Numbered from the stretch's first letter, positions 3,013-22,555 are shown. The stretch is 24,000 nucleotides of DNA from Acidobacteriota bacterium (GCA_050264575.1 JBLNGH010000339.1:875-24874), one strand, 5' to 3'. Notes: generated from the letters alone by a model not told the origin. Numbers and translations: made by a program.

Positions 3013-5393
3013 TACTTAATGGAGCTCGCGTCGAGCGCCCAGATGCCCCGCCCGTACGTCGAGATCACGAGCATCTGGTCGCGCGGCTCGAACTGCAGGT
3101 CCGACACCTGGTTGGACGGCAGATTGCCGCCGAGCACTTCCCAGCGTTCGCCTCCGTTCGTCGAGACGTAGACGCCGAAGTCGGTGCCGACGTAGAGGAT
3201 GTTCGGGTTGCGCGGGTCTTCGCGAATCACGTTCACCGGACCCACCGGGATGTTCCCGGCGATGCTGCGAATCGTCCTCCCGTTGTCGGTCGACTTGTAG
3301 ATGTAGACGCCGAAGTCGTCGTCTTCGCGGCCGCGCTGCGTGATGTAGACCGTACCTTCGTCGTGCTGAGAGGGGACGACGCGCGAGATCCAGCGTCGGA
3401 CCGGGAGCTTGGATGTCAGTTCCGTCCACTCCTTGCCCGTATCGAGCGTGACGTGCAGCCGGCCATCGTCGCTGCCGACGTAGAGCAGTCCCTTGCGCTT
3501 CGGCGATTCGGCGAGCGCCACGATTGTCTGGTACGGAATCGCCGTCGGATTCTCGCCCATCTGCTCCTTCTTGTTGTCGGTCAGATCCGCGCTGATCTTT
3601 TGCCAGCTGTCTCCGCGATTCTCGGATCGATAGACCGACTGGAAGCCCGCGAAGATGATGCTGCCGTCGTGGGGCGAGACGATGATCGGCGCCATCCATT
3701 GCGCGCGCAGTTCCTGATCCGGATCCTTCGGCTGAATCGGCGTGTTGGTGCCTCCGCGTCCGCGGCCGCCGCCGCGGCCGCTCGGATCGGGCGGCGGGGT
3801 CGCGCCGAGGTCGGTCCGGCTGAAGTTGCCGTAGAAGCCGTGCGAGTACACGATGTTCGGATTGGTCGGATCGATCGCGTGGTTCGATCCTTCGCCGCCA
3901 GGCGCATTCTCGAAGTCGACGGCCGGGACGGCGCCACGCCCCTTGCCGGTATCGACGCGGCCGCGCCGGCTGCCGTGATCCTGAATCGATCCGTAGGCCC
4001 AGACGGGCGTGTTCGAATCGAGCGTCACGTTGTAGAACTGCGCGCCGCCCGCCGACACGGCAAATTTCCAGGTCTTGCCGCCGTCCTCGGACTGATAGAA
4101 GCCGCCGTCGTTGTTGTTATAGAGAATCGACGTGTTGCCCGGATCGATCCAGAGACCATGGTGGTCGCCGTGCATCCCGGTGACGCGCGAGAACGTCTGA
4201 CCGCCATCCCGGGAGACGTTGAGACCCAGGCCCATCGTGTAAATCGTTTTTTCGTCTTTCGGATCCACCCGGATCTGTCCGAAGACCCACCCGTACGTGC
4301 CGGAATGGCCGTTGAGGTAGTCAATCGTGGCCTGAGTCTTTCGACTGGTTTGCCGCCAGGTCTTGCCTCCATCGTCGGTCCGGTAGATGTCGGCACCCTT
4401 GATGAAGCCTTTGCCCGCCGGCATCGGCCGGCCGTACGCGTCATTGGTGCCCGGCTTCGGCACCACGCCGATCTCGTAGTTGTCGACGAAGGCGTACAGC
4501 ACGTTCGGGTTCGATCTGGAGACGTCGATCCCGATGCGGCCGCGGAACTCGGGCGCGGGAAGGCCCTGGCTCACGTCGTTCCAGGTCTTACCGCCGTCGG
4601 TCGTCTTCAGGATGCCGCCTTCTTTGTAGCCGGGCTCGACGCGCGGATCCGACCACTTGCGCCGCACGCGCTGCCAGAGTGCCGCGTACAGCGTGTTGGG
4701 GTCGCGCGGATCCATCACGAGATCGATCGCGCCGGTGCGCGGGCTGCGATACAGCACCTTTGTCCACGTCTTGCCGCCGTCGGTCGTCTTGAAGACGCCG
4801 CGCATCTCGTTGTCCGTCCACTCGTGGCCGGAAGCGGCCACGTACACGATGTCAGGGTTGGTCGGATGCACGAGGATCCGCGCGATCGTCTGCGTATCGG
4901 TCAGCCCCATGTGCTGAAAGGTCTTGCCGGCGTCGGTGGACTTGTAAATGCCGACCCCCGGCATCGACGCGCGAAAGATATTCGCTTCGCCCGTCCCGAC
5001 CCACAGAATGTCGGGGTTCGAGGGCGCGACGGCGAGATCGCCGACGCTCGTCGACGGCATGTCGTCGAAGATCGCCTGCCACGTTGCGCCGTTGTCATCG
5101 GTTTTCCAGACGCCGCTCGTCGCGTAGCCGGCGTAGATGCGCCGTTGACCGTTCTTGTCGGCGACGGCCGTATCCGTGGAGCGGCCGCTCACGTTCGTGG
5201 GACCCACGTACATCCATGAGGCCGATTTGTACGGCGACGCATCGCGCATCGAGCGATACGTGTCGTAGCCCTTGCGCAGGACTTCGGCATCCGCCCTGGC
5301 GGCCTGCTGCGCCCGCAGAGCGAGCGGAATGCTGCAGAGTGCCGCGAGAAGGACCAGCGAGAGGCGGCTGGCGCGCCCGAGGTGTCGGGTCAT
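3012..5393 (-). CDS. Secreted BNR/Asp-box repeat beta-propeller protein (sortilin/VPS10-like or GH74-like WD40/YVTN/BNR family)
   Basis: At least 10 Asp-box motifs (S/T-x-D-x-G-x-T-W/F) are present: TDDNGATW, STDAGKTF, TTDGGKTW (twice), RTDDGGKTW, SRDGGQTF, SEDGGKTW, ENRGDSWQ, LDTGKEW and STNGGERW. The start is moved to the internal Met at 5393 (MTRHLGRASRLSLVLLAALCSIPLALRAQQ), which gives a classical signal peptide. The track ORF start at 5531 would overlap the divergent cysteine desulfurase gene. Confidence 0.8.
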   Translation of the reverse strand: MTRHLGRASRLSLVLLAALCSIPLALRAQQAARADAEVLRKGYDTYRSMRDASPYKSASWMYVGPTNVSGRSTDTAVADKNGQRRIYAGYATSGVWKTDDNGATWQAIFDDMPSTSVGDLAVAPSNPDILWVGTGEANIFRASMPGVGIYKSTDAGKTFQHMGLTDTQTIARILVHPTNPDIVYVAASGHEWTDNEMRGVFKTTDGGKTWTKVLYRSPRTGAIDLVMDPRDPNTLYAALWQRVRRKWSDPRVEPGYKEGGILKTTDGGKTWNDVSQGLPAPEFRGRIGIDVSRSNPNVLYAFVDNYEIGVVPKPGTNDAYGRPMPAGKGFIKGADIYRTDDGGKTWRQTSRKTQATIDYLNGHSGTYGWVFGQIRVDPKDEKTIYTMGLGLNVSRDGGQTFSRVTGMHGDHHGLWIDPGNTSILYNNNDGGFYQSEDGGKTWKFAVSAGGAQFYNVTLDSNTPVWAYGSIQDHGSRRGRVDTGKGRGAVPAVDFENAPGGEGSNHAIDPTNPNIVYSHGFYGNFSRTDLGATPPPDPSGRGGGRGRGGTNTPIQPKDPDQELRAQWMAPIIVSPHDGSIIFAGFQSVYRSENRGDSWQKISADLTDNKKEQMGENPTAIPYQTIVALAESPKRKGLLYVGSDDGRLHVTLDTGKEWTELTSKLPVRRWISRVVPSQHDEGTVYITQRGREDDDFGVYIYKSTDNGRTIRSIAGNIPVGPVNVIREDPRNPNILYVGTDFGVYVSTNGGERWEVLGGNLPSNQVSDLQFEPRDQMLVISTYGRGIWALDASSIK

Positions 5394-5498: not shown

Positions 5499-6659
5499 AT
5501 GCCACACGCGCCGGTCTATCTCGACTACCACGCGACCACGCCGGTCGATCGCCGGGTGGTCGACGCGATGCTGCCGTACTTCACCGAGTGCTTCGGCAAT
5601 CCCGCCTCATCCGGTCATCAGTGGGGATGGAAGGCGCAGGAAGCGGTGGAGCAGGCGCGCCGGGACGTCGCCGCGCTCATCGGCGCAACGGCGCGTGAGA
5701 TCGTGTTCACGAGCGGCGCCACGGAATCCAATAACCTGGCAATTCAGGGTGGTGCCGCCGAGGCGCCGCCCGAACGTCGTCACGTCGTCGTCTCGGCGAT
5801 CGAACATAAGTCGGTGCTCGAAGCGGCGGCCCGGCTCGAACGGAGCGGCTGGCGCGTGACGGTCCTGCCCGTTCGGAAAGACGGGATGATCGATCTCGAG
5901 CCGCTCGACCGCGCCGTCACGGACGACACGGCGCTCGTGAGCGTGATGGCCGCCAACAATGAGATCGGCGTTCTCCAGCCGCTCGCGGAGATTGGCGAGA
6001 TCGCGCACGCGCGCGGCGCGATTTTCCACGTGGATGCTGCTCAGGGCGCGGGCAAGATTCCGATTGACGTCGGCGCCATGCACGTCGACCTGCTCGCGCT
6101 GACGGGTCACAAGATGTACGGGCCCAAAGGATGCGGCGCGCTGTTCGTGCGCAAGCGCACCGAGCTGGCGCCGCTCATCATCGGCGGCGGGCAGGAGCGC
6201 GGGCTGCGATCGGGAACCTTGAACGTCCCTGGCATCGTCGGGCTCGGCGCCGCGTGCGCGATCTGCCAGCGCGAGATGCCGCAGGAAGCGATCAGGATGC
6301 GTCAGCTTCGTGACCGGCTGCTGAGCGGGCTGACGTCGCAGATCGACGGTGTGATCGTCAACGGATCGCTCGAGCATCGGCTTCCGAACAACCTTCACGT
6401 CAGCTTCAGCGGCGTGGATGGAGAATCGCTGCTCATCGGCATCGGCGACATCGCGGTCTCATCCGGATCCGCGTGCAGCTCCGCGTCGGCGACGCCGTCC
6501 CACGTCCTCCGCGCCATCCTCGGCGACGACGTGCCGGCGGCGGCAATCCGGTTCGGGTTGGGCCGGTTCACGACCGACGACGAGATTGACTACGCCGTCG
6601 AAAAATTTGCGACAGTCGTTCGACATTTGCGAGGCGTTGCGCCCGCAAGTCGATCATGA
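5499..6659 (+). CDS. iscS: Cysteine desulfurase, class I (IscS/NifS family, PLP-dependent)
   Basis: The N-terminus reads VYLDYHATTPVD..MLPYF...FGNPASSGHQWGW. Other family blocks are FTSGATESNNLAI, the PLP-lysine block LTGHKMYGPKGCGALFVR, and the active-site loop SSGSACSS. The length of 386 aa is typical. Confidence 0.9.
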   Translation: MPHAPVYLDYHATTPVDRRVVDAMLPYFTECFGNPASSGHQWGWKAQEAVEQARRDVAALIGATAREIVFTSGATESNNLAIQGGAAEAPPERRHVVVSAIEHKSVLEAAARLERSGWRVTVLPVRKDGMIDLEPLDRAVTDDTALVSVMAANNEIGVLQPLAEIGEIAHARGAIFHVDAAQGAGKIPIDVGAMHVDLLALTGHKMYGPKGCGALFVRKRTELAPLIIGGGQERGLRSGTLNVPGIVGLGAACAICQREMPQEAIRMRQLRDRLLSGLTSQIDGVIVNGSLEHRLPNNLHVSFSGVDGESLLIGIGDIAVSSGSACSSASATPSHVLRAILGDDVPAAAIRFGLGRFTTDDEIDYAVEKFATVVRHLRGVAPASRS

Positions 6660-7486
6660 ACGGCACCGACGAACGTTCCGGACGCGAGACACGGCTGCTG
6701 GTGCTCGTGATCGTCGTGTCGCTGGCCGTGCTCCTGCTGCTCGCGCAGTTCCGGTTCCCGCCGGTCGGGTTGACCGCCGGACCGCCCACGCCGGGGCCGC
6801 TCGACAAGCTGGCCGCGCGCGCGACGTACGACGATCTTGCCGCGGCGATTGCCGCCGTCGTCCAACGGGTCGAGTCCTCGATCGTCATCGTCCAGGTCGA
6901 CTCGCCGCCGCCCGAGGAAAAAGAAAAGGAGCGGGGGAAGGAGCGCGGGAGAGAAAAGACCAGCCCGGCGCCGTCCGCACCGGCGCTGTCGCCCAGGCTC
7001 CTGCCCGCCATCCGGCTGAGGCCCGACATCGCCCTGGTCCATGTGCCGGCCGGGATGCGGGTCAGTCCGGCACAGGGATTCTCGGGTCCGACGGCCGTTT
7101 TTGCGACCGATCCGAAGCGTGAAATCGCGCTGGTACGGGTCGCGCCATTGCCTGAGTCGGCCACCGGGCTGCCGAGTGCCTTCGAACGCTTCCCTGGATT
7201 CAGCTACGTCGCCGTGATCGAGGCCGCGATGGGCGGACCATCGGCGCGCCCGGCATTCATCGGCCGGCTCGACACATCCGTCGACGATCGCTGGCAGCCG
7301 TCGCCGCTGCTCATCGGCGGCGCGTCGGAAGCCAGCGCGGGCTCGCTGCTCTTTGCGGTCGACGGCCGGCTCATCGGCATGGTGCTGCCGCAATTCGGTA
7401 CGCTCGCCGTCGTTTCGCCCGCGGCGCTCAACGCCGTCGTCACCGAGCTCGGCGGCGGTGGAACGAATGGCGGCGGCGCGCGATGA
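6656..7486 (+). CDS. Hypothetical N-terminally membrane-anchored protein, possibly a degenerate trypsin/HtrA-like fold
   Basis: Its ATG overlaps the upstream stop (ATGA at 6656-6659). One TM helix is present (LLVLVIVVSLAVLLLLAQF). By eye, REIALVRV and SAGSLLFAVDGRLIGMV resemble the S1C blocks DIALLKV and GNSGGPL..DG.vIGI, but there is no clear catalytic Ser, His or Asp. A charged insert reads PPEEKEKERGKERGREK. Confidence 0.55.
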   Translation: MNGTDERSGRETRLLVLVIVVSLAVLLLLAQFRFPPVGLTAGPPTPGPLDKLAARATYDDLAAAIAAVVQRVESSIVIVQVDSPPPEEKEKERGKERGREKTSPAPSAPALSPRLLPAIRLRPDIALVHVPAGMRVSPAQGFSGPTAVFATDPKREIALVRVAPLPESATGLPSAFERFPGFSYVAVIEAAMGGPSARPAFIGRLDTSVDDRWQPSPLLIGGASEASAGSLLFAVDGRLIGMVLPQFGTLAVVSPAALNAVVTELGGGGTNGGGAR

Positions 7487-7592: not shown

Positions 7593-8783
7593 ATGACCTC
7601 ACCCCTTCGCGACATTCGACGTCGCGAATTGGGCGGGCCGGACCCGCTCGATCGCCGTCTGGGGATTCCGCCGCAAACGCCGCTCACCTGGCTGCGGTCG
7701 CTCTTGTTCACGCGATCGGCGCTCGGGCTCGCGCCGTCGCTCACGCCCGCGGTGATCTTTCTGCCGGTCGGCGTGCTGCTCGGTCCTCATGCGCTGAACG
7801 TCCTCTCGCCGACCGTCCTCGGCCGGCTCGATCTCGCCGTGACCATTGCGCTCGCCGTGCTCGGCGTGCTCGTCGGCATTGCGCTCGGCCGCGAGATCCG
7901 GTCGGCGACGCGTCTGTTCATCGCCGCCAGCCTCGAGAGCCTCGTGACGATTGCCTTCGTCACCGGCGCGACGATCTACTTCGCGCGGGTGACCGGATTG
8001 CCGCTCGGCGCGCCGATCGCCGCGTTCGGACTCGCGCTCGGTCTCTGCGCGTCGGCATCGTCAGCCACGTCTGCCGATCCCGATTCGGAGCCGTCGGCCG
8101 AAGTCGCGACGCGCGTTGCCGATCTCGACGACGTCGTGCCGATTGTCGTCGCGACGATCGGGTTCGGTCTGCTGGCGCCTGTGCCGATCGAGGACACGCT
8201 CACCCTCGCGCTCGCGACCGTCCTGTCCGGGCTTGCGGTCGGCGCCATCGGCTGGCTGCTCTTCGAGCGTGCGGAGTCCGGCGCCGAGCGCGCGGTGTTT
8301 CTGCTTGGCGCGCTCGCGCTGGCGGGCGGCGCCGCGGCCATGCTTCGCGCCTCGCCGCTGGCTGTCGGGCTCATCGCCGGCCTGTGCTGGACGATCGCGC
8401 CGGGCCGCGCCGATCGGATCGTGCAGGACGACCTCGGCAAAGTGCAGCACCCGCTGGTGGTCCTGCTGCTCGTGACCGCCGGCGCCCTGTGGGCGCCGTC
8501 CGTGGTCAGCTTGTGGCTTCTGGCGCCGTATCTCCTCTTTCGTCTGGCGGGCAAAGTCGCCGGTGCCTGGGTCTCGTCGCGAATTGCCGATGTGAGCGCC
8601 GCCGATCTCGCGGCGTTCCTCGTGCCGCCCGGCGTTCTGGCCGTGGCGTTCGCGCTCAACTTCCGCCAACTCCTTCCGCCTGACGCCGGGGACACGCTGC
8701 TCTCGGCCGTCGTGATCGGCACCGCGGCGTTCGATCTGTTCGCGCTGGCCGTCGTGCCTCACTGGAGACGAAGGCCGACATAG
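7593..8783 (+). CDS. Polytopic membrane protein, cation/proton-antiporter-like (Na_H_exchanger-type)
   Basis: The ORF has about 11-12 hydrophobic spans. An N-terminal signature LPVGVLLGPHALNVL and a mid-protein block ADLDDVVPIVV recall CPA-family helices. It looks like a paralog of the N-terminal half of the next ORF. The start is uncertain. Confidence 0.6.
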   Translation: MTSPLRDIRRRELGGPDPLDRRLGIPPQTPLTWLRSLLFTRSALGLAPSLTPAVIFLPVGVLLGPHALNVLSPTVLGRLDLAVTIALAVLGVLVGIALGREIRSATRLFIAASLESLVTIAFVTGATIYFARVTGLPLGAPIAAFGLALGLCASASSATSADPDSEPSAEVATRVADLDDVVPIVVATIGFGLLAPVPIEDTLTLALATVLSGLAVGAIGWLLFERAESGAERAVFLLGALALAGGAAAMLRASPLAVGLIAGLCWTIAPGRADRIVQDDLGKVQHPLVVLLLVTAGALWAPSVVSLWLLAPYLLFRLAGKVAGAWVSSRIADVSAADLAAFLVPPGVLAVAFALNFRQLLPPDAGDTLLSAVVIGTAAFDLFALAVVPHWRRRPT

Positions 8784-8976
8784 CCCCATGCAGCGTGTTG
8801 CCGAGATCGCTGTCTCATTGTTTCCCGTCGGATGGCCCGCAGGCGCGCCAACGGCGCGCCTCGCCGGAGCGGAGCGGGGCGGAAGGGCCCCCGCGAGCGA
8901 ACGGCGAAAGGGGGTCCGGGGGACGAATGTCCCCCGGTTGAACAAGAGGCGGAGGCCAACCTAGCCCCATGCGGCG
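8769..8976 (+). repeat. 27-nt direct repeats (8769-8795 and 8950-8976, 23/27 identical), each carrying an ...RRRPT-TAG-CCCC-ATG stop/start junction, flanking a 154-nt spacer with two GC hairpins
   Basis: The repeats are CGAAGGCCGACATAGCCCCATGCAGCG and CGGAGGCCAACCTAGCCCCATGCGGCG. The hairpins are GGCGCGCC-aac-GGCGCGCC (8842-8860) and CCGGGGGAC-gaat-GTCCCCCGG (8916-8937). A 58-codon ORF (8788-8964) runs exactly from the first ATG to the second TAG. Confidence 0.6.
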
Positions 8977-11683
8977 GCTCAGTGCGCTTGCCATCACGAT
9001 CACGCTTGCCTGGTTCGTCCTCGTCCGGATGGGCGGTCAGAACGCGAGCGCGACCGCGCTCGGGCTGGGCGTGGCGCTCGTCTCGGCGTCGATCGTCGGG
9101 TGGCTCTTCGAGTTTCTCCGGCTCCCGCGCATTACCGGCTATCTGATCTTCGGCCTCGTCTGCGGTCCCGCAGTCGCCAACCTGATCACGGAACCAATGG
9201 CGCGCGACCTGCGCGTCGTCGGCGGCTTCGCGATCGGCATCATCGCCTTCATCGCCGGCTTGCAGGTGAACTTCGCCAGTCTCCGTTCACGGCTTCGAGC
9301 GATTGCGACGGTGACCGTCACGGCGGTGTCGCTCTCATGGGCGGGCGTGACGGCGGTGGTGTTCGTCCTGTGGCGCTGGCTGCCGTTCGGCGCCGAGCTG
9401 TCGGGCGCGGAACGAGCCGCCGCGTCGGCGCTCATCGCGACGCTCGTCATCGGCGTCTCGCCCATCCTGACCACGGCGGTGATCGCCGAAAGCCGTGCCC
9501 GCGGGCCGCTTTCGACGATGGCCACCGCGGTTGTCGTCTGCGCCGAGCTTCTCGTCATCGTCTTCTTTGCGATCGCGCTGCAGCTCTCGAGGACGGCATT
9601 CGGCACTCAGCCGGCGCAGGGCTTCGAGCTCGCGATCTCGACCGGCTGGGCGACGGCGGGATCGGTCGCGTTCGGCGGGCTGCTGGGATCGCTGTTCGCG
9701 CTGTATTTGCGTTTTGTCGGGCGCGAGGTCACGGTCGTGCTCCTCGCGCTGTTCGCGCTCTTTACGGGCCTTGGCGCGCGATGGCACTTCGAGCCGCTGC
9801 TCTCCGGGCTGGCGGCCGGGCTGGTCGTGCAGAACGTGATGGGGCAGGCGGGCGACGTGCTGCGCGACTCGATCGCGCGCGGCGCCATGCCCGTCTTCGT
9901 CCTGTTCTTTGCCGCCGTCGGCGCGTCGATGCAGGTCGATGCGGTCGCGACGCTCGGGATTACGGCGCTCGCGCTCTCGCTCGTGCGCGCCGTGCTGCTC
10001 CGCGCCGGCGCCAAGTTCGGCGTGCGGGCGGCCGGCGTCGAAGCGCCGGAGACCCATCTGCTCTGGCGGTCCTTTATATCCACGGCGGAGATCACGATCG
10101 GTCTGACCACGCTCGTCGTCACCGAGCATCCGGTCTGGTCGGGCCAGCTGCAGACACTCATGATCGCGATCGTGGCCATGAACGAGCTCGTCGGGCCGAT
10201 CGTCTTCCGGGCCACGCTGGCGCAGCTTCGCGAGATCGGCGGCGGTGGCGGCAGCCTCGTCGTCGTGTCCAATCGTGAGCCGTGGGTGCACGACTACGCG
10301 CCTGATGGATCCATCCGCGCGCGCCCGACGCCCGGCGGCGTCTCCGTCGCGCTCGATGCGCTGATGCGCGAACGCGGCGGCGTGTGGATCGCGCACGGCG
10401 CCGGCAGCGCGGATCGCGAAGTCGTCGACGAGCGAAGCTCGATTTACGTCCCGCCCGACTCGCCGTCCTACCGGCTGCGGCGGCTGTGGCTGTCACCCGA
10501 AGAGGAAGAGCGGTACTACGCGGGCTTCTCCAACAGCGCGTTGTGGCCGCTCTGTCACCAGGCGCACGTGCGTCCGGTGTTCAAAGCCGAGGATTGGGAA
10601 GCGTACAAGTCGGTGAACCGGTTGTTTGCGGAAGCGGTCGCGCTCGAAGCGCCGCCGGACTCGTCCGTGTTCCTGAACGACTACCACCTCTCGCTCGTCG
10701 CCAGGTACATGCGCGAGCGGCGGCCGCTCCTGCGCTCCGCGCTGTTCTGGCACATTCCGTGGCCGGACGCCGATCGTCTCAGAATCTGCCCGTGGCGCAA
10801 GGAGATCCTCGAAGGGCTCCTCAGCAACGATCTGCTCGCATTCCAGCTGCCGCGCGATCAACGCAACTTCCTCGTCTCGGTCGCCGACGAGCTGGGCGCC
10901 TCCGTCTCGGGCGAGACCGTGTACTTCGGCGATCGGCCGGTCCGCGTGCTGGCGATTCCGATCGGCGCCGATTTCGATCGCATTACCGAGATTCTGGCGG
11001 ACCCGGACCTGCCGAGCGAGATGCGCCGGCTCGCGCGCGACCTGAAGCTCGAGGACAAGGTCGTCGGTGTCGGCGTCGATCGGCTCGACTACACCAAGGG
11101 GATTCCCGAACGGATGGCCGCCATCGATCGCGTGCTCGCCGCGCGGCCGGACCTGGCCAAACGATTCGTGTTCGTCCAGATTGGCGTGCCGTCGCGCACC
11201 GATGTGCCGGCGTATGCCGACATCACCGCGGAAATCGACGAGCAGGTGGCGCGCATGAACGAGAAGTACGGCAACGGGCCCGACAATGGTCCCGTCCGCT
11301 ACGTGAAGCAGGCGTTTCAGCTGCCGGAGCTCGTCGCCGTGTACCGCCTCGCGCGGTTCTGCATCGTCTCGTCGCTCCACGACGGCATGAATCTCGTCGC
11401 GAAGGAGTTCGTCGCCGCGCGCGACGATCTCGACGGGATCCTGATTCTGAGCGAGCTGGCAGGCGCGGCGCAGGAGCTGTCCGAGGCGCTGATCATCAAC
11501 CCGTACGACGAGCGGGGATTCACTGACGCGGTGGCACGCGCGATCGACATGCCGGCCTGGGAGCGGCGGCGCCGGATGCAGGCGCTCCGGCGGCGCGTGG
11601 CCGGACGCGACGTGCTGGCCTGGGCGTCGGACATTCTCGATCGGCTCGAACGGCGGAAAGGTACGGGGTTTCTCGCTGGGTAG
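8969..11683 (+). CDS. otsA: Fusion protein: N-terminal cation/proton-antiporter-like polytopic membrane domain (about aa 1-415), GGGGG linker, and C-terminal trehalose-6-phosphate synthase (GT20, OtsA)
   Basis: This is a single 904-codon ORF. The N-terminal half is hydrophobic and carries ITGYLIFGLVCGPAVANLI. The C-terminal half has the OtsA blocks LVVVSNREP, GGVSVALDAL, YYAGFSNSALWPLCH, FLNDYHL, FWHIPWP, GVDRLDYTKGIPERM, VQIGVPSRTDV, SLHDGMNLVAKEFVAA and LSELAGAAQELSEALIINPYD. Confidence 0.85.
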   Translation: MRRLSALAITITLAWFVLVRMGGQNASATALGLGVALVSASIVGWLFEFLRLPRITGYLIFGLVCGPAVANLITEPMARDLRVVGGFAIGIIAFIAGLQVNFASLRSRLRAIATVTVTAVSLSWAGVTAVVFVLWRWLPFGAELSGAERAAASALIATLVIGVSPILTTAVIAESRARGPLSTMATAVVVCAELLVIVFFAIALQLSRTAFGTQPAQGFELAISTGWATAGSVAFGGLLGSLFALYLRFVGREVTVVLLALFALFTGLGARWHFEPLLSGLAAGLVVQNVMGQAGDVLRDSIARGAMPVFVLFFAAVGASMQVDAVATLGITALALSLVRAVLLRAGAKFGVRAAGVEAPETHLLWRSFISTAEITIGLTTLVVTEHPVWSGQLQTLMIAIVAMNELVGPIVFRATLAQLREIGGGGGSLVVVSNREPWVHDYAPDGSIRARPTPGGVSVALDALMRERGGVWIAHGAGSADREVVDERSSIYVPPDSPSYRLRRLWLSPEEEERYYAGFSNSALWPLCHQAHVRPVFKAEDWEAYKSVNRLFAEAVALEAPPDSSVFLNDYHLSLVARYMRERRPLLRSALFWHIPWPDADRLRICPWRKEILEGLLSNDLLAFQLPRDQRNFLVSVADELGASVSGETVYFGDRPVRVLAIPIGADFDRITEILADPDLPSEMRRLARDLKLEDKVVGVGVDRLDYTKGIPERMAAIDRVLAARPDLAKRFVFVQIGVPSRTDVPAYADITAEIDEQVARMNEKYGNGPDNGPVRYVKQAFQLPELVAVYRLARFCIVSSLHDGMNLVAKEFVAARDDLDGILILSELAGAAQELSEALIINPYDERGFTDAVARAIDMPAWERRRRMQALRRRVAGRDVLAWASDILDRLERRKGTGFLAG

Positions 11684-11738: not shown

Positions 11739-12521
11739 GTGCACGAGCGGTTGTCCGACCGCCACGTGCTGCTGCTCACCGACTACGACGGCACGCTCGC
11801 CGACATCGCGCCGACGCCGGCCGAAGCGACGCTCTCCGAATCGGTGCGCCTCGAGCTCGCCGCGCTGGCCGCTTTCGACGACGTCACCGTCGGCGTCGTC
11901 AGCGGGCGGCGCCTCGACGATGTGCTCGAGCGCGTCGGGCCCGCGGCCGAGTACGGCGCAGGCCTGCACGGGCTGGAAATGGTCGGCCCGGAATCGGCGT
12001 TCCATCACTATGCGCTCGACTCGGTCGAATCGGTGATCGCCCGCCTCGCGCGCGACGCAGCGCGTGTGCTGCAGTGGTGCCCGGGCGTGCTGCTGGAGAA
12101 CAAGAAATACGCGCTCACCTGTCACGTCCGGCTCGCGCCGCCGGACCTCGGCGATCGCGCGCTCGAAGAGTTCGAAGCGCTTGCCGAGCCGCAACTCGAA
12201 GCACGTACGCTGAAGCTGCTGACCGGCAAGCAGGCTCTCGAGCTCCTGCCTGCCGTCGACTGGCACAAGGGCCGCGCCGCCGAGTGGATCCGCGCGCGCG
12301 TCGCCCCGCGAGTCGATCGGCCGGTATCGATCGTGTACCTCGGCGACGATCGCACGGACGAGGATGCGTTCACGGCCCTCGGCGACGAAGACGTCGTCAT
12401 CGGCGTCGGCGACCGCCCGCACACGCACCTCATCGACTGGCGGCTCGCAGGTCCGCCATCGGTCGGACGATTCTTCGCGCGGCTCGCGGATTACAGGCGG
12501 GGCGCCGCCGAAGAGACCTAG
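11739..12521 (+). CDS. otsB: Trehalose-6-phosphate phosphatase (HAD superfamily, OtsB)
   Basis: HAD motif I is LLLTDYDGTL, motif II is GVVSGR, and motif IV is YLGDDRTDEDAF. The gene sits directly downstream of otsA. The start is a GTG. Confidence 0.85.
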   Translation: MHERLSDRHVLLLTDYDGTLADIAPTPAEATLSESVRLELAALAAFDDVTVGVVSGRRLDDVLERVGPAAEYGAGLHGLEMVGPESAFHHYALDSVESVIARLARDAARVLQWCPGVLLENKKYALTCHVRLAPPDLGDRALEEFEALAEPQLEARTLKLLTGKQALELLPAVDWHKGRAAEWIRARVAPRVDRPVSIVYLGDDRTDEDAFTALGDEDVVIGVGDRPHTHLIDWRLAGPPSVGRFFARLADYRRGAAEET

Positions 12522-12578: not shown

Positions 12579-13412
12579 ATGCGCATTTCCGTCGCCCACA
12601 GTCCTGACTCCGACGACGCGTTCATGTTCTTTGGATTGGCGAGCGGGGCCGTGCGCGCCGACGGCCTCGAGTTCGATCAGATCCTGGCCGATATCGAGAC
12701 GCTCAATCAGGCGGCCTTCGAAGGACGGTACGACGTCAGCGCCGTGTCGTTCCACGCCTACGCGCACCTCGCGGACAAGTACGCGCTCCTGCCGCATGGC
12801 GCCAGCATGGGCGATCGCTACGGCCCGATTCTCGTCGCGAAGCGCCCGCTGGCGGAGGACGGGTCGCTCGCCGGGGTGCGTGTCGGCGTCCCCGGGCGAT
12901 TGACGTCGGCATTCCTGGCCTTGCAGCTGTACGATCCGTCCTTCGATTTCGAGGTCGTTCCGTTCGACCAGATCCAGCAGGCCGTCGTGGAGGATCGGGT
13001 CGATGCCGGACTGCTGATTCACGAGGGGCAGCTCACCTACGCGGCCGACGGGCTGAAGAAGATCGTCGATCTGGGCGAATGGTGGTTCGATCGGACGGGC
13101 GGTCTGCCGCTGCCGCTCGGCGGCAACGTGATCCGCCGGGACCTCGAGCCCGCCACGGCGCGGACGGTGTCGCGGATCCTGCACGACAGCATCGCCCATG
13201 CCCTCGAGCATCGGGCCCAGGCGGTCGAGTACGCGAAGCAATTCGGCCGTGGATTGGACTCCCGGGACACCGATCGGTTCGTCGGAATGTACGTCAATCA
13301 GCTCACCCTGGATTACGGCACCCGGGGCCGCGCCGCCCTCGACCGGTTCTTCGGCGAGGCGTACGAGCGGGGACTTATTCCTCGCAAGATCTCGGCAGAT
13401 TTCGTCAATTGA
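12579..13412 (+). CDS. mqnD: MqnA/MqnD family protein of the futalosine menaquinone pathway, most like 1,4-dihydroxy-6-naphthoate synthase (MqnD)
   Basis: The N-terminus is MRISVAHSPDSDDAFMFFGL..G.......F......DIETLNQAAFEGRYDVSAVSFHAY.....YALLPHGASMGDRYGPILV. It parallels the remembered MqnD pattern SPCPNDTF.F.AL ... DIE.LN ... DV.K.SFHA ... GaalG.g.GPl. The subfamily assignment is by eye. Confidence 0.65.
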   Translation: MRISVAHSPDSDDAFMFFGLASGAVRADGLEFDQILADIETLNQAAFEGRYDVSAVSFHAYAHLADKYALLPHGASMGDRYGPILVAKRPLAEDGSLAGVRVGVPGRLTSAFLALQLYDPSFDFEVVPFDQIQQAVVEDRVDAGLLIHEGQLTYAADGLKKIVDLGEWWFDRTGGLPLPLGGNVIRRDLEPATARTVSRILHDSIAHALEHRAQAVEYAKQFGRGLDSRDTDRFVGMYVNQLTLDYGTRGRAALDRFFGEAYERGLIPRKISADFVN

Positions 13413-13454: not shown

Positions 13455-13511
13455 GTGCGCGAGCGGGGGTGGGGTGGGGCCCCGCGAGCACTGAAAAGAA
13501 GAAGCAAGCCG

Positions 13512-14474
13512 ATGCGATTTCAATTGGTGAAGGTGGGTGTGTGTCTGGCGCTCGCGACTGCCATCGCTGCGCAGGAACCATCGGTCGTTCGAGTCACGGC
13601 AGCGCGGGCAACTCTTCGAGCTGAACCCTCCGAGACCGCTCCTGCCGTCGACGAAGTCATGGCCGGCGCGGTCTTCGAGCTGGCGCGGGTCGAAGGCGAC
13701 TGGTTTCGCGTCATCCTTCCCCCAGACCCTCGCCTGAAGGGTGCACGCGTCCACGCATACCTGTCGCGGAAGGCCGCCAGCCAGGTTGCCGGCACGGACG
13801 CCGCCAGTGCCCTGACTCTGTCCCGCGCGCCCCGCCGAAGCCCGCTCGCAACCAGCGTCAAGGTCGGCGTCGACGCCGGGGGCCCGACCACATGGTTGTC
13901 GGCACGGGCCGTCAACGCGTCTCTCGTCCCCGGCCGGCCGGAGTCGGTGCCCGCAGCCGCATCGATCGCTGTGTTCGACGGTCCACCAGGGGCAACGACA
14001 CCTGAGCCACCAGGGTCGGAGGTCATCGGGACCTGGGTCTGGGCGATCTCGCCGGGCGCGCCTTCGGTCACGATAACTGCCGGTCAGCCGAGCTTTTTCG
14101 TGGCCTATACCGAGTTGCCCGACCTGAATTCAGCCGATTTCGTGCCCTCGCTGATCAAAATCGTGCCCGGCAAGTCGGGATGGCGCTTGCTCTCGATCGC
14201 CGCCGGCCGGGCCGGCGCGCGATCGAATGACGAGGCGGACTGGGTCGTCCTTCGTCAACTGAAACAGGAGGTCGTACCGACCAGCCTCGACGGCAGCGGT
14301 CCCGGACTGGTGCAGGTGCGCCCGCGCGTCGCCTTGAGTCCCGGTGAGTACGCGATCGTTCTTCGGCCGGCGTACGCGCGCGGCTATTCCGGCCGCGAGA
14401 TTCTGAACGACGCCGGCGCCGGGTCCGTTTTCAGCGTCGCGTGGACCTTCACCATCAAGCCCGCGCGTTTCTAA
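13512..14474 (+). CDS. Secreted protein: signal peptide, bacterial SH3 domain, low-complexity linker, and an uncharacterised C-terminal domain (paralog 1)
   Basis: The start is moved to the internal ATG at 13512, giving the signal peptide MRFQLVKVGVCLALATAIAAQEP. The SH3_3-like block is VVRVTAARATLRAEPSETAPAVDEVMAGAVFELARVEGDWFRVILP. The C-terminal domain aligns with the next ORF (PSFFVAY, LSPGEYAIVLRP, VAWTFTIK). Confidence 0.7.
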   Translation: MRFQLVKVGVCLALATAIAAQEPSVVRVTAARATLRAEPSETAPAVDEVMAGAVFELARVEGDWFRVILPPDPRLKGARVHAYLSRKAASQVAGTDAASALTLSRAPRRSPLATSVKVGVDAGGPTTWLSARAVNASLVPGRPESVPAAASIAVFDGPPGATTPEPPGSEVIGTWVWAISPGAPSVTITAGQPSFFVAYTELPDLNSADFVPSLIKIVPGKSGWRLLSIAAGRAGARSNDEADWVVLRQLKQEVVPTSLDGSGPGLVQVRPRVALSPGEYAIVLRPAYARGYSGREILNDAGAGSVFSVAWTFTIKPARF

Positions 14475-14591: not shown

Positions 14592-15722
14592 ATGAAAAGA
14601 CTCTCAATCTCTCTCGTCACCGTACTCGGAGTCATTCTGGCTACCGGGTCCGCTTTCGCGCAGACCGCCGGCACCGTCAAAGTGACCGCGCCGCGCGCGA
14701 ACGTGCGATCGGGGCCGAATCAGAAGAGCCCAATCCTTGCCCGGGTGAGCGTCGGTACCACCTTCAGACTGCAAGCTGTCGAGGGCGAGTGGTACCGGGT
14801 CCAGCTGCCCGCGTCGTCTCGGGCAGCCAAGACCCGAAAGACCGCGTTCATTTCGCGGAAGGTTTCGTCGGTCGTCACGCCGCCCGCGCCCGCGGTTTCG
14901 TCCGCGCAGCCGGTTTCACGGCCGCCGGCCGCCTCGCGCACAGCGGCCTATTCACCGGCGCCGGCTGTTTCTCCCGCGACTGCCATTCCCGCTGAGCCAA
15001 CACCGCTGCCTCCACCGCCGGTGGCGGAGTCGCTGGCACCGGCGATGCGGGGGACGCCTCTGCCATCGCCGCCGCTGGCGCCGCTGCTCAAGGCGACCTC
15101 GGCTCCGCTCGCTCCGGTCAGCCGCGACGGCATGTCGGTCGCGTTGCAGACCGGAGGCGGATCGACGTGGATGCCATCCTCGTCCGCGCGTGTGTCGAAG
15201 ATGCTCGAGAAGGTTGGTTCGGTGCCGGAATTCGCCAAAACGCTTCCTGCCGGCGAAGGGTCCGGTGCCGCAGCGACGGGGACGACGCCGATCACCTATG
15301 TCTGGACGGTCGATGGGAACACCTCGAGGCTCGTGGATGAGGCCCGGCCGACCTTCGTGGTCCAGTACAAGGATGTGCCGGGCGTGAGCCCCGACGAGGT
15401 CATTCCCGTCATCGTCCGGCTGACCCCGACCGCAGCGGGCGAGCGCTTCGTTGGAGCGGCCAAGGGACGGGCGGACGAAGCGGTCCGGCCCGGCGCGGAA
15501 TGGGACATCTTCCGCGAATGGAAGCAGGAAATCGTCAAGACTGAGTTTGAAAAGGTCGGCCGGGGCGCCGCGAAGGTTCGTCCAGCGAGCGATCTCAAGC
15601 CCGGCGACTACGCCGTGGTCCTTCGGATGAGGGACCGCAAGAAGCTGCCGGGCGCGACGGTGCTCTCCCCGTCGGGCGAAGGAAAACTCTACACGTCGGT
15701 CTGGCCGTTCACGGTCAGGTGA
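14592..15722 (+). CDS. Secreted protein: signal peptide, bacterial SH3 domain, Pro/Ala/Ser-rich linker, and an uncharacterised C-terminal domain (paralog 2)
   Basis: The signal peptide is MKRLSISLVTVLGVILATGSAFAQT. The SH3-like block is VKVTAPRANVRSGPNQKSPILARVSVGTTFRLQAVEGEWYRVQLP. The C-terminal blocks PTFVVQY, LKPGDYAVVLRM and SVWPFTVR match paralog 1. An AGAGAG purine run precedes the ATG. Confidence 0.75.
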   Translation: MKRLSISLVTVLGVILATGSAFAQTAGTVKVTAPRANVRSGPNQKSPILARVSVGTTFRLQAVEGEWYRVQLPASSRAAKTRKTAFISRKVSSVVTPPAPAVSSAQPVSRPPAASRTAAYSPAPAVSPATAIPAEPTPLPPPPVAESLAPAMRGTPLPSPPLAPLLKATSAPLAPVSRDGMSVALQTGGGSTWMPSSSARVSKMLEKVGSVPEFAKTLPAGEGSGAAATGTTPITYVWTVDGNTSRLVDEARPTFVVQYKDVPGVSPDEVIPVIVRLTPTAAGERFVGAAKGRADEAVRPGAEWDIFREWKQEIVKTEFEKVGRGAAKVRPASDLKPGDYAVVLRMRDRKKLPGATVLSPSGEGKLYTSVWPFTVR

Positions 15723-15755: not shown

Positions 15756-16415
15756 CTAGGGGGCCAAAACATCCGCGAACACAAACCCTTCGCGCTCGAC
15801 GATGACGCCGGGTTCGATCGCGATGGGATGACCGAACATCGGTCCGGAAAAACAGAAGGTATGAAACTCGCCGCGCTCGCCGCACGGGTCAACACCCGGC
15901 GGCAGCTCGGCGAGGAGTGACGAATCGAAGCGGCGCCCGGCGAACCGGCGATCGAGCTGCCGCGGATCCACGCAGGTGAGAACCGCGCCCAGCCCGGACG
16001 CAAGCATCTCACGCGCGAGCGCATCCGTCGGCCGTTTCCAGAGCGGAAAGATCGGATCGAGTCCGGTGCCCGCCAGCCGCGATTCGCGGTACTGCCGGAC
16101 GTCTTCGAGAAAGAGATCGCCGAACGCGACGTGCGTCAATCCTTCCAATCGCGCGCGCGCCATCGCATCACGCATCCGCGCCTCGTAAATGTCGTTCGGA
16201 CAGGGCGATGGAATCGGTACATTCCAGAGCGGCAGGCCGGCCGCCTCCGCTTGCGCTTCGACAAGCGTTCGCCGGACTGCGTGCATCGCCACGCGATCCG
16301 CCTCCGCGTTGAACGTGGTCAGCAACGCGTGCACCTGCACGGCCGGATCCTGCCGGAGCACATGCAGGGCCCAGGCGGAATCCTTGCCTGACGACCACGA
16401 CAGCAGCACTTTCAT
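15756..16415 (-). CDS. Dph6-related / MJ0570-like PP-loop ATP pyrophosphatase (adenine nucleotide alpha-hydrolase superfamily, ATP_bind_4 type)
   Basis: The N-terminus MKVLLSWSSGKDSAWAL carries the SxGKDS PP-loop. Also present are FGDLFLEDVRQYRE, PLWKR and CGERGEFHTF. The ATG overlaps the upstream stop (ATGA at 16412-16415). Confidence 0.7.
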   Translation of the reverse strand: MKVLLSWSSGKDSAWALHVLRQDPAVQVHALLTTFNAEADRVAMHAVRRTLVEAQAEAAGLPLWNVPIPSPCPNDIYEARMRDAMARARLEGLTHVAFGDLFLEDVRQYRESRLAGTGLDPIFPLWKRPTDALAREMLASGLGAVLTCVDPRQLDRRFAGRRFDSSLLAELPPGVDPCGERGEFHTFCFSGPMFGHPIAIEPGVIVEREGFVFADVLAP

Positions 16416-17443
16416 TGAGTCGTGGCCCGCTGAAGCGGCTGCGGCGCGAAGGCGGCTGGATGCAGCACGCGCGCCAGCCGCCGGATCGCCTCTGCGACGC
16501 GGGGGCCGGGAATCGACATGAGATCGTCGGCGAGGATGTAGATGCGTCCCGTGCGGACGGCGGGAAGCGACGGAAGCGCCTTCCAGACGCCGCGCTCGCG
16601 TTCAATCTTCTCCGGCGTCCACCCTGCGCTGGCATAGACCTCGATAATCACCTCGGGTGCGCGGGCGAGCACGGTCTCCGCCGACAGCTGCAGGCTCTGG
16701 CGCTTGAGGTCCGCAAACGCGTCCATTCCGCCCGCGGCTTCCAACATGTCGTGCATGAACCCGACGCCGGCGCTGGCGTACATGCTCCGGAGAGTGCCGG
16801 CTTCACGGCCGAAGAGCAACGCCGTTTTCGGTCGTGGTCTTCCCGATACCCGCGTCCGGATGTCCGCGATGTCGCGCTCGATCTCCGACGCGATCCGGTC
16901 CGCCTCCGGCGAGCGGCCGACGCGTTCTCCAAGCTTTCGAATCGTCATCGTGATGTCCGGGAGGCCGGCGTGCTGGTACTCGAACCGCGGAATTCCTGCG
17001 CGATCGAGTCGCGCGATCAGCTCCTGCTGGGTGCCGTAGACGACGACGAGATCGGGTTTGAGCGCGAAGATCCGCTCGACATTCGGATCGAGCAGCGCGC
17101 CGACGCGCTCGCGCGACGCCACCGCCGCCGGGTACGTGTCGTAACTCGACACGCCGACGACCTGGTCTCCCGCGCCGATGGCAAACAACATCTCGGTGAC
17201 GGCGGGAATGACGGAGATGATGCGGCGAGGACGCTGAAGAAGGACGCTTGTCGGTACGACGGGTACAGCAGGTACGACAGGTACGTCGGGTCCCTGGAAC
17301 GATCTGACGCTGGCCATCTTTCCTTTACTAAGGAAGCTGGCGAGCGTCAGGCTCCTTGGACCTGACGTACCCGGCGTACCTGATGTGCCTGACGTACCGA
17401 CGCCGAGCGACGCGATCAGCGCGAGCGAAGCGAGGAGTTTCAT
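16412..17443 (-). CDS. ABC-transporter periplasmic substrate-binding protein, BtuF/FhuD-like (cobalamin / Fe3+-siderophore family)
   Basis: The start is set at the internal Met (MKLLASLALIASLG signal peptide), whose ATG overlaps the permease stop (ATGA at 17440-17443). The mature part, RIISVIPAVTEMLFAIGAGDQVVGVSSYDTYP ... LKPDLVVVYG, is typical of Peripla_BP_2. The 149 aa upstream in the track ORF overlap the permease gene and are Arg-rich shadow sequence. Confidence 0.8.
   Translation of the reverse strand: MKLLASLALIASLGVGTSGTSGTPGTSGPRSLTLASFLSKGKMASVRSFQGPDVPVVPAVPVVPTSVLLQRPRRIISVIPAVTEMLFAIGAGDQVVGVSSYDTYPAAVASRERVGALLDPNVERIFALKPDLVVVYGTQQELIARLDRAGIPRFEYQHAGLPDITMTIRKLGERVGRSPEADRIASEIERDIADIRTRVSGRPRPKTALLFGREAGTLRSMYASAGVGFMHDMLEAAGGMDAFADLKRQSLQLSAETVLARAPEVIIEVYASAGWTPEKIERERGVWKALPSLPAVRTGRIYILADDLMSIPGPRVAEAIRRLARVLHPAAFAPQPLQRATTQ
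17250..17401. repeat. Inverted pair of 44-nt arrays with 9-nt period (GTACCNNNN x4), arms 17250-17293 and 17358-17401 with a 64-nt spacer, lying in-frame inside the BtuF-like CDS
   Basis: Arm A is GTCGGTACGACGGGTACAGCAGGTACGACAGGTACGTCGGGTCC. The reverse complement of arm B is GTCGGTACGTCAGGCACATCAGGTACGCCGGGTACGTCAGGTCC, which matches 37/44. The arms encode GTSGTSGTPGTSGP and GPDVPVVPAVPVVPT between the signal peptide and the mature domain. Confidence 0.8.
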
Positions 17444-18447
17444 CGTTTCCCGATTAAAAACCAGAGCACGAACGGCCCGCCGATGACCGCCGTCACCACG
17501 CCGACCGGCAGCTCGACGGGCGCGAGGATCGTACGCGCGAAGACGTCGCAGACGACCAGAAATGCCGCGCCGAAGAAAGTGGACGCCGGAAGGACCAGCC
17601 GGTGATCGGCGCCCACCACCAGCCGGACCAGGTGCGGGACGATGATGCCGACGAAGCCGATGGGGCCGCCGACGGACACGGCCGCGCCTGTCGCAAGCGA
17701 CCCGCCGAAGAACGCCATCCGCTGAGCGCGCCCGACGTCGACGCCGCGCGAGCTCGCCGCGTCGGTGCCGAGCGTGAGCAGATTGAGCGGACGGGCGAGC
17801 CGCGCGAACAGGCCGAATGCGACGACCACGAGCGGAAGGGCGGAGAAGATCGGCCGGTAGCTGACGACGTCGAGATCGCCCATCAGCCATCGCAGCGCGC
17901 GAAAGATTTGCGCGAAGTCGCTCAGGTACTGGACGAAGAGAATGAGCGCCGAGAAGAACGCGTTGAGCGTGACACCCGCGAGCAGAAGGACCGTGGAGGA
18001 CAGCCCCTGGTGACGCGCGGTCGCCAGAAAGTACACGACCATCACGGCGACGAACGCGCCCATCAGGCTGGCGGCTTCGACGCTTCCGAGCGGCCAGGCG
18101 GCACCGAAGGTGATCGTCACCATCGCGCCCAGCGCGGCGCCCGACGAGACGCCGAGCGTGTACGGCGTGGCCAGCGGATTGCGAAGCAGGCCCTGAAAGA
18201 CGACGCCGGCCGCGGCCAGCGTTCCGCCGACGAGCGCCGCCGCCAGCGCGCGCGGCAGCCGCGCGACGAAAAAAATCTGCGCGTCGACGTTGTCGGTAAA
18301 CGCGACGGACGGGTTGAAGACCTGTCGGAAATGGATGGGCGTCGATCCGATAAACGGCGCGATGAGGACCGCGGCGATCATCGCCACGAAGCAGACCGCG
18401 ACGATCGGGAGGCCGCGTCGCAGGGGTAAGACGACCTCGGGTGTCAT
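17440..18447 (-). CDS. ABC-transporter permease, FecCD/BtuC family
   Basis: The protein is polytopic and has FecCD-type sequence ([44 protein letters not shown] ... [16 protein letters not shown]). The start is set at Met17 of the track ORF (18447), whose ATG overlaps the ATPase stop (ATGA). Confidence 0.85.
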   Translation of the reverse strand: [335 protein letters not shown]

Positions 18448-22525: not shown

Positions 22526-22555
22526 GATAATGGGTAATTGGTAATCGGGTAATGG
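22526..22555 (+). repeat. Tandem 7-8-nt repeat GATAAT / GGTAAT x3 in the yjbQ/mqnE-like intergenic region, overlapping the first possible ATG
   Basis: Read directly: GATAATG GGTAATT GGTAATC GGGTAATG. Confidence 0.7.

Follow-up and report, generated by a model that had tools for sequence, protein, structure and literature searches.

A conserved fusion of a CPA-type membrane domain with trehalose-6-phosphate synthase in Vicinamibacterales suggests a physical tie between trehalose synthesis and the ion and pH machinery of the cell

Introduction

The stretch of DNA analysed here, 24,000 nucleotides from an Acidobacteriota bacterium (GCA_050264575.1, JBLNGH010000339.1:875-24874) and referred to as the window, contains a gene in which an antiporter-like membrane domain of CPA type is continuous with a trehalose-6-phosphate synthase (OtsA). 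Judged from sequence comparisons across related genomes, its product is a single polypeptide and represents a conserved integral-membrane trehalose-6-phosphate synthase of the Vicinamibacterales (Acidobacteriota). The fusion suggests that trehalose synthesis is physically tied to the ion and pH machinery of the cell. Trehalose is the main drought and osmotic protectant made by soil bacteria, and the Vicinamibacterales are an acidobacterial order represented by many soil and groundwater genomes. To our knowledge, the switching of trehalose synthesis at the protein level is poorly understood beyond a few model organisms.

Results

One reading frame encodes both domains

The gene is an uninterrupted open reading frame (ORF) of 904 codons on the plus strand with an ATG start (positions 8969-11683), as the initial annotation of this DNA had stated, and its product carries two Pfam domains in succession, Na_H_Exchanger (PF00999) in the N-terminal and Glyco_transf_20 (PF00982) in the C-terminal half. 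This is the result that had been predicted for a Pfam search of the 904-residue protein, with both matches, at residues 38-417 and 430-894, above the cut-off. The NCBI record of the protein (MGE5835583.1) bears the sole annotation "trehalose-6-phosphate synthase", and the presence of both domains is noted only by automated annotations, such as one JGI name. The same architecture was found in more than 120 protein clusters at 62-100% identity, each of about 904 residues and with both Pfam domains, and those clusters that bear names all stem from Acidobacteriota or Vicinamibacterales metagenome-assembled genomes (MAGs).

When species-representative genomes were scanned with the membrane domain and the junction, the latter was intact in about 60 genomes, from which 43 uninterrupted fusions originating from independent assemblies and sequencing platforms were extracted. 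The junction sequence LVVVSNREP is invariant among the fusions. A scan of the linker for start codons found none; the nearest GTG corresponds to V433 within the first OtsA beta strand, and the other start candidates close to the junction lie inside transmembrane helix (TM) 13. A separate OtsA beginning at V433 is unlikely because such a start would cut off most of the conserved first strand. Broken frames were encountered only in long-read MAGs (loci L002, L023, L049, L057 and L062), in which the adjoining genes are fragmented as well. Although these loci demonstrate that indel errors occur in such data, we reject the idea that a frameshift of assembly or sequencing joined two genes, or that OtsA is translated separately from an internal start, as hardly credible in view of the number of independent in-frame copies, the linker devoid of starts and the invariant junction.

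In the AlphaFold model of the fusion (predicted local distance difference test, pLDDT, 76), the last residue of helix 13 is 419, and the first beta strand of OtsA starts at 430. The linker between them has a length of 10-11 residues in 43 of 44 fusions, and its sequence varies by clade, being EIG(R/G)xGG in clade 1, which includes the window, and GELDAxxPRP in clade 2. The five glycines initially described as the linker are present in the window (G424-G428), but they are limited to it and not kept in the relatives. At the opposite end, the model shows an N-terminal helix from residue 2 to 21, of which R2, R3 and L4 are invariant in the family. This helix may be a signal peptide or an additional membrane helix in front of the 13-helix core, the A-x-A pattern being the one feature that points to cleavage.

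The OtsA half retains the residues of a working synthase

The match of PF00982 to the fusion scores 373.8 bits against a cut-off of 32.5 and extends over model positions 3-472 of 473. With the OtsA equivalog model TIGR02400, the fusion reaches 433.5 bits (cut-off 564.85), and with PRK10117 257.6 bits (cut-off 759), so that automated equivalog naming fails because the protein is divergent. The closest solved structure is 5jij from Mycobacterium thermoresistibile (E 4e-88). The AlphaFold model of the OtsA half exhibits the GT-B fold with two Rossmann domains and matches OtsA/Tps1 structures at probability 1.0 with TM-scores of 0.85-0.87 (target-normalised).

In Escherichia coli OtsA, glucose-6-phosphate is bound by R9, W40, Y76, W85 and R300 and UDP-glucose by G22, D130, H154, R262, D361 and E369 (PMC1769515), to which K267 has been added (PMC3441724). 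We aligned E. coli K-12 OtsA with the fused (n=47) and with unfused sequences, and 11 of these 12 literature-defined residues turned out to be identical to E. coli and invariant in the 47 fused sequences. R436, G457, Y517, W526, D571 and H595 of the fusion correspond to R9, G22, Y76, W85, D130 and H154 of the E. coli enzyme, and R705, K710, R743, D805 and E813 to R262, K267, R300, D361 and E369. The published numbering of Trp40 is out of register: the invariant W473 corresponds to W39 of E. coli, and H476 to W42. Since unfused relatives also carry His at the latter position, it is a trait of the lineage. By this alignment, the OtsA half retains the known substrate-binding and catalytic residues of a working synthase, with activity itself being predicted; the full-length PF00982 match likewise agrees with the initial description of a complete GT20/OtsA domain. 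Positive-inside reasoning and the precedent of KefC indicate that the fused OtsA should face the cytoplasm.

The fused membrane domain has an NhaA fold and an acidic residue at the ion-binding position

PF00999 matches the fusion with 78.8 bits (cut-off 26.2) over model positions 2-373 of 375. The sequence initially highlighted as a Na+/H+-exchanger-style signature, ITGYLIFGLVCGPAVANLI, comprises residues 55-73, of which G57, Y58, G62, G66 and P67 are invariant in the family. With 31.5 bits, far under the cut-off of 238.3, the fusion is not a scored CPA2 member according to TIGR00932 (CPA2, 2a37); JGI names its relatives "KefB-type". A phmmer search of PDB sequences with the fused membrane domain yielded no match, and a profile of 55 sequences of this CPA subfamily reaches NHE6, NHE9, NapA, PaNhaP and MjNhaP1. 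In the profile alignment, S164-P165 falls on the D-P of the TDP breakpoint motif of TM5 (NHE6, NHE9) and x192-[D/E]193 on the N-D ion-binding motif (helices are named as in PMC11150392). The AlphaFold model of the domain consists of the extra N-terminal helix and 13 core helices, with TM5 broken at residues 161-164 and TM12 at 370-374. TM6 of the window fusion carries A192-E193, and the invariant R340 sits halfway along predicted TM11 (residues 323-355). The TM12 breakpoint at residues 372-374 reads T-A-E in the window and Q-A-G in unfused orthologs. No KTN/TrkA domain was found by Pfam in the C-terminus of the fusion, where the domain is GT20.

According to the structural work on KefC, NapA has DD on TM6 and K305 on TM11, KefC has QD and K307, and CPA1 exchangers carry an Arg on TM12 (PMC11150392). 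The initial annotation had aligned ADLDDVVPIV of the upstream paralog by eye with CAELLVIVF of the fused copy, which was read as loss of the ion-binding carboxylate. Profile alignment reproduced this register but does not support that reading, as E193 occupies the place of the key Asp in the ND/QD/DD motif; given that KefC works with QD (PMC11150392), A-E alone is no sign of a dead transporter. Residue 193 is acidic in every fusion, being Glu in seven and Asp in five members of clade 1 and Asp in 32/32 members of clade 2, and it is Asp in 121/121 unfused orthologs.

The upstream gene encodes a divergent paralog

The gene directly in front of the fusion, here termed UpCPA, had been proposed to belong to the same apparent family, which holds in the sense that its product is a distant homolog with a CPA fold and without a Pfam hit. 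In Pfam and NCBIfam, no family was found at E<=0.01, and the UpCPA family profile did not match any PDB sequence; its more than 120 homolog clusters are all annotated as "hypothetical". Alignment with the CPA subfamily profile by hhalign resulted in a probability of 96% and an E-value of 4.9e-9 over 311 collinear columns. The AlphaFold model (pLDDT 77.6) shows the NhaA/CPA fold, and a Foldseek search with it returned SLC9C1, SOS1, NhaP, NapA and KefC at probability 1.0 with TM-scores of 0.55-0.64. Narrower comparisons of UpCPA with the fusion are weak (probability 26% with a fusion-only profile, 69 residues by BLASTP), and paralogy is accepted because the broader hhalign profile and the fold match agree. 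The motif D177-L-D179-D180 as well as R317 and K321 are invariant; in the alignment, the fusion has A192-E193 opposite D179-D180 and R340 opposite R317. In a separate region, UpCPA residues 155-170 (window ~8055-8102), there is a 6-residue deletion where the fused domain has TM5b, and clade 1 members carry the acidic loop S-A-D-P-D-S-E-P, which is invariant among them and modelled at very low confidence.

A three-gene membrane module predates the fusion

Loci were fetched and searched with hidden Markov models for each neighbouring gene, and four arrangements were distinguished. Fused clade 1 has the order cysteine desulfurase, p276 (a predicted single-pass membrane protein), UpCPA, CPA::OtsA, OtsB and MqnA. 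Fused clade 2 (39-47% identity) comprises p276, UpCPA and CPA::OtsA, followed by OtsB in about one third of the loci. In the unfused-adjacent loci L033, L036 and L048, p276, UpCPA and a stand-alone CPA gene are present with a divergently transcribed otsA-otsB pair next door, and in 18 Vicinamibacterales genomes OtsA stands alone in a locus that lacks the module.

Stand-alone CPA orthologs at 44-51% identity, labelled KefB-type and one of them from Luteitalea, are accompanied by p276 (with a PDZ domain) and UpCPA, whose stop overlaps the CPA start; otsA is not nearby in these contexts. UpCPA immediately precedes the CPA gene in the Vicinamibacterales loci, whether these are fused or unfused. 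That the CPA pair and p276 make up a pre-existing three-gene module, which also occurs without OtsA, was missed in the initial annotation. The module predates the OtsA fusion; in the related genomes that carry it without OtsA, the hallmark residues of both CPA paralogs are all kept.

In a neighbour-joining tree of the OtsA domains (calculated without support values), unfused forms sit between the two fused clades, which implies either a single fusion with later fission or loss, or two separate fusion events. A MAG labelled Proteobacteria (L054) serves as an outgroup; its stand-alone CPA gene (7875-9245, 34% identity) and its separate otsA (9384-10928) are 138 bp apart, and we count this adjacency without fusion, outside the Vicinamibacterales, together with the otsA-otsB pairs beside the unfused module in L033, L036 and L048, as functional linkage beyond the fusion itself. 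The ORF upstream of this pair was tested as a UpCPA homolog and rejected as unrelated.

The CPA subfamily comprises 3,235 clusters at 50% identity, and an OtsA fusion occurs in only about two of them. In other relatives, the CPA domain is joined to AAA_16/MarR or Ion_trans domains, indicating promiscuity of this module. Relatives of window positions 8969-10250 head such multi-domain proteins in P0266, P0308, P0330, P0361, P0371, P0375, P0384 and P0309. Those of the AAA class have 1,300-1,520 residues and consist of PF00999, about 700 unannotated residues, an AAA_16/AAA_22 P-loop domain and a weak C-terminal MarR-like helix-turn-helix, and P0309 has an Ion_trans channel domain in place of the AAA/MarR part. 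We know of no description of the CPA-AAA_16/AAA_22-MarR or CPA-Ion_trans architectures. Several MAGs labelled Solibacteraceae, Acidimicrobiia, Bifidobacteriaceae or Bifidobacterium (L003, L004, L006, L018 and L034) carry the Vicinamibacterales-type module in full synteny, and their bin labels are probably wrong.

The two paralogs have changed in complementary ways

Among the unfused orthologs (n=121), E99, S164, P165, D193, N289, R340 and Q372-A373-G374 are each conserved to 100% and M367 to 89%. The window fusion has Q99, E193, R367 and T372-A-E374. More generally, clade 1 exhibits D193E in 7/12 members and a degraded Q-A-G motif and retains Glu at position 99 in 4/12, and clade 2 has kept D193 and QAG in 32/32 and carries Thr at position 99 in 27/32 and Glu in none. 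M367 is replaced in both fused clades, by Arg in clade 1 and by Thr in clade 2. UpCPA has retained its D-x-D-D motif in 12/12 members of clade 1 and in 8/8 unfused contexts, and most of clade 2 has lost the second Asp. The ratio of CPA to UpCPA divergence amounts to 1.40 in clade 1, 0.58 in clade 2 and 0.64 in unfused loci, the last value derived from only three genome pairs.

By these sequence comparisons, the degeneration of the two paralogs is complementary in the two fused clades, and the residue changes together with the faster CPA evolution in the clade of the window fit an altered role of the fused copy, be it regulatory or anchoring. The initial proposal of a sensor or anchor is thus partly supported by altered hallmark residues and accelerated evolution, while the argument it was built on is not supported because residue 193 stays acidic.

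Other features of the window

The coordinates of all features are compiled in Table 1. The protein p276 was found 5' of the CPA pair in nearly all loci, including the unfused contexts L081, L083 and L085, and the p276 of unfused relatives carries an additional PDZ domain. Its ectodomain shows a weak trypsin-like similarity, with Trypsin_2 matching 4 of 15 members (best E 0.004) and the protease-like sensor domain of RsgI9 at E 0.46. No invariant His or Ser is present in the p276 family alignment, in which catalytic positions were assigned by eye. The similarity could not be lifted above these weak matches.

The spacer between UpCPA and the fusion gene is long in comparison with most other loci, in which the gap measures about 5 bp or is replaced by a 4-bp overlap (by domain-match coordinates); a gap of comparable size occurs in the closest relative, L001, alone. 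Neither a sigma-70-like promoter nor a T-tract terminator was detected in the spacer, promoter and terminator scans around the operon did not rise above the background of shuffled sequence, and the vicinity of the fusion gave no match to an Rfam family. The downstream gene is otsB, as initially reported, with two models above their cut-offs and the HAD motif DYDGTL visible in the translation.

A treS-like gene occupies the left edge, in accordance with the initial annotation. An ORF on the opposite strand at 305-3019 (+), which also has 904 codons, was a candidate for a second fusion or for treS; it was discarded as a spurious high-GC ORF, since Pfam finds no domain in it and the genuine gene runs on the minus strand. 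Throughout the Vicinamibacterales, the otsA region is bordered by cysteine desulfurase and MqnA irrespective of whether the CPA module is present. The MqnA-like and MqnC/CofH-like genes are pieces of the futalosine menaquinone pathway. The pair of SH3_3/SH3_4 genes is syntenic in the clade 1 loci L002, L008, L061 and L062. On the right, a cobalamin riboswitch, a TonB-dependent receptor and a FecCD cluster probably form a B12 uptake operon.

Table 1. Coordinates of the fusion, its parts and neighbouring features, counted from the first nucleotide of the window
Feature	Positions	Strand	Basis or remark
treS-like GH13 enzyme	2-3064	-	long C-terminal extension, runs off the window
Sortilin/Vps10 and BNR-repeat protein, 839 residues	3012-5531	-	between treS and cysteine desulfurase; secreted look by eye (hydrophobic N-terminus)
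Cysteine desulfurase	5499-6659		
p276, single-pass membrane-anchored protein	6656-7486	+	first gene of the conserved triad; start overlaps cysteine desulfurase stop
UpCPA, divergent CPA-fold paralog, 396 residues	7593-8783	+	remote homology and fold match
Spacer between UpCPA and fusion gene, 185 bp	8784-8968	.	two perfect GC-rich hairpins (8841-8861, 8916-8937)
Fusion: N-terminal helix, residues 1-28	8969-9052	+	MRR, hydrophobic stretch, then NASA
Fusion: CPA membrane domain (NhaA fold, KefB-like), residues 38-419	9080-10225	+	PF00999, profile, AlphaFold helix map
Fusion: linker, residues 420-429 (REIGGGGGS)	10226-10255	+	from last membrane helix to first OtsA beta strand
Fusion: GT20/OtsA domain, residues 430-894	10256-11650	+	PF00982, E 1.6e-111
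otsB, trehalose-6-phosphate phosphatase	11739-12521	+	55 bp 3' of fusion; PF02358 119 bits, TIGR00685 138 bits (cut-off 68)
MqnA-like (VitK2_biosynth)	12579-13412	+	
SH3_3/SH3_4 protein	13455-14474	+	after MqnA; secreted look by eye (hydrophobic N-terminus)
SH3_3/SH3_4 protein, paralog of the preceding	14592-15722	+	secreted look by eye (hydrophobic N-terminus)
FecCD permease and periplasmic binding protein genes	17440-18495, 16412-17890	-	follow the TonB-dependent receptor
TonB-dependent receptor	19252-21597	-	
Cobalamin riboswitch RF00174	21654-21971	-	48.8 bits; 5' of the TonB-dependent receptor
MqnC/CofH-like radical SAM protein	22552-23733	+	

Discussion

The reading we tentatively prefer, with a probability that we place close to but below even, is that OtsA is tethered to the membrane and coupled to a module of paired CPA proteins. 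OtsA would produce trehalose-6-phosphate (T6P) at the inner face of the membrane while hanging from TM13 of the CPA protein. As TM13 belongs to the mobile core domain, movements that depend on ions could be transmitted to the enzyme, or in the opposite direction. Because CPA antiporters are dimeric, a heteromer of the fused CPA domain and UpCPA is probable. In the clade of the window, UpCPA may be the main ion-handling partner, since the fused copy has lost invariant residues and evolves faster, whereas UpCPA keeps its Asp-Asp pair. The fused copy, as the less constrained partner, would then be mostly an ion- or pH-responsive coupling and anchoring subunit. Trehalose synthesis would thereby be tied to the cation and proton status of the cell under osmotic or drying stress, with control running either from the ion state to the enzyme or from the state of the enzyme to the transporter. 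In E. coli, transiently accumulated K+-glutamate is replaced by trehalose during osmoadaptation, according to Dinnbier 1988 as cited in PMC5066198, and soil-preferring classes of Acidobacteriota are enriched in trehalose synthesis (PMC11245096).

Several observations weigh against this coupled enzyme. The two-domain AlphaFold model has a predicted template modelling score (pTM) of 0.53, so the packing of the two domains against each other is not confident, and a sub-profile of the C-terminal half, used to align R340 with K305 of NapA or K307 of KefC, gave spurious matches only. S164, N289 and R340 are invariant and residue 193 is acidic in the fusions, for which reason the fused copy could still transport ions. 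The rate comparison has a small unfused reference, given its three genome pairs. The 18 genomes with plain OtsA and without the module in the locus indicate that members of the order can do without the fusion in trehalose synthesis. Finally, otsA and the module genes share an old syntenic neighbourhood in which cysteine desulfurase and MqnA flank both, so that closeness on the genome, instead of function, could account in part for their adjacency and fusion.

A possible but doubtful variant is that the two CPA-fold paralogs constitute a heterodimer that is no longer mainly an antiporter but a sensor of ion, pH or membrane state, which would switch OtsA allosterically through the short linker of fixed length on the mobile TM13. 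One partner would keep a working ion site and release the other for divergence, the two fused clades having taken opposite courses. If true, this would be the first transporter-fold "transceptor" to directly control a sugar-nucleotide glycosyltransferase, and the first heteromeric CPA pair.

We consider it unlikely that the fused CPA domain functions as a K+(Na+)/H+ antiporter with OtsA as its cytoplasmic regulatory domain, in which case occupancy by substrate or product would gate cation efflux and K+ would leave as trehalose accumulates. C-terminal cytoplasmic domains do regulate transport in known CPA proteins (the KTN domain of KefC, PMC11150392; SOS1, NHE3 and SLC9C1 among the structural matches), S164, the acidic residue 193, N289 and R340 occur in all fusions, clade 2 has preserved D193 and QAG throughout, and E. 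coli indeed swaps K+ for trehalose. However, the clade of the window shows D193E, a degraded TM12 motif, the loss of E99 and a faster evolution than UpCPA, and a fully kept OtsA active site followed by otsB implies that OtsA is an enzyme in the first place and not a mere ligand sensor.

Also rather improbable is a passive tether, i.e. that neighbouring genes were joined by rearrangement and that the CPA domain only localises OtsA, for instance near membranes that trehalose protects, without any control by ions. The ancestral neighbourhood that unites otsA/otsB and the module between cysteine desulfurase and MqnA and the relaxed hallmark residues of the fused copy are compatible with such a history, and so is the OtsA tree, in which the position of the unfused forms makes fusion and fission seem easy. 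But the pocket residues, which a mere anchor would not need, are invariant over more than 50% divergence, and the linker length is fixed at 10-11 residues in 43/44 fusions. Furthermore, both clades replaced the same cytoplasmic-side residues E99 and M367 by clade-specific ones, which looks like adaptation and not like drift.

The wider CPA/AT clan includes carriers of organic substrates, and the changes at otherwise invariant residues in the fused copies might point to a fold repurposed for cargo other than cations, such as export of trehalose or T6P or import of a sugar precursor with synthesis and transport channelled; this is very improbable, as the cation signature is kept (Ser-Pro breakpoint, acidic TM6 residue, TM11 Arg), the neighbourhood has no pointer to sugar export and the unfused orthologs are ordinary KefB-type proteins by annotation.

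With a membrane-tethered OtsA coupled to a CPA pair as the preferred reading, the Vicinamibacterales fusion offers a molecular link, open to experimental test, between the rapid ionic and the slower compatible-solute phases of osmoadaptation. It also exposes a conserved three-gene membrane module, the second gene of which is annotated only as "hypothetical", and a CPA subfamily found repeatedly at the N-terminus of other large multi-domain proteins. Because public annotation says only "trehalose-6-phosphate synthase", metabolic reconstructions miss the membrane nature of the enzyme. A full-text literature search on the CPA-OtsA architecture and on Vicinamibacter and trehalose found no description, in line with the initial remark that no characterised membrane-embedded OtsA is known. 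Geobacter sulfurreducens GSU2337 has been reported as "containing a domain" 37% identical to mycobacterial OtsA (PMC2700814), which hints at a possible further multi-domain OtsA.

None of the nearest known systems joins a CPA-fold domain to a glycosyltransferase. With the soluble OtsA/TPS enzymes of E. coli (1GZ5/1UQU) and M. thermoresistibile (5JIJ), the fusion shares the fold, the substrate-binding and catalytic residues and the otsB partner, but the solved enzymes are not membrane proteins, whereas the fusion adds a polytopic N-terminal domain of about 430 residues. KefC/KefB, NHE1/3, SOS1 and SLC9C1 likewise consist of a 13-helix NhaA fold with a cytoplasmic domain directly after TM13, and the acidic TM6 residue of "xD" type (QD) and the basic TM11 residue of KefC may have their counterparts in E193 and R340 of the fusion. 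The likeness is one of layout only: their cytoplasmic part is a KTN/RCK, cyclic-nucleotide-binding or scaffold domain and that of the fusion is a metabolic enzyme, their key Asp is a Glu in the window, and the soluble ancillary protein of KefC-type exchangers has its counterpart here in a CPA-fold paralog.

In the msc-gt-tpsp operon of Thermoproteus tenax (PMC3634074), T6P synthesis is also genetically linked to an osmotic membrane protein and the enzyme is activated through a complex. In contrast to the fusion, this is an operon with an MscS-like channel in place of a CPA protein, and the TPS-TPP enzyme is activated by a GT4 glycosyltransferase. In the TPS-TPP fusions (TPSP, PRK14501), OtsA is similarly part of a larger protein, and PRK14501 is the best-scoring NCBIfam model for the fusion. 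However, only positions 4-465 of the 729 of this model are matched, the phosphatase is the separate gene otsB at 11739-12521, and the fusion partner is N-terminal and membrane-embedded. Transceptors are exemplified by CbrA, a histidine kinase with an SLC5-like domain. They share with the fusion the layout of a transporter-fold domain followed by a cytoplasmic output, which in the Vicinamibacterales protein is a biosynthetic enzyme instead of a signalling domain.

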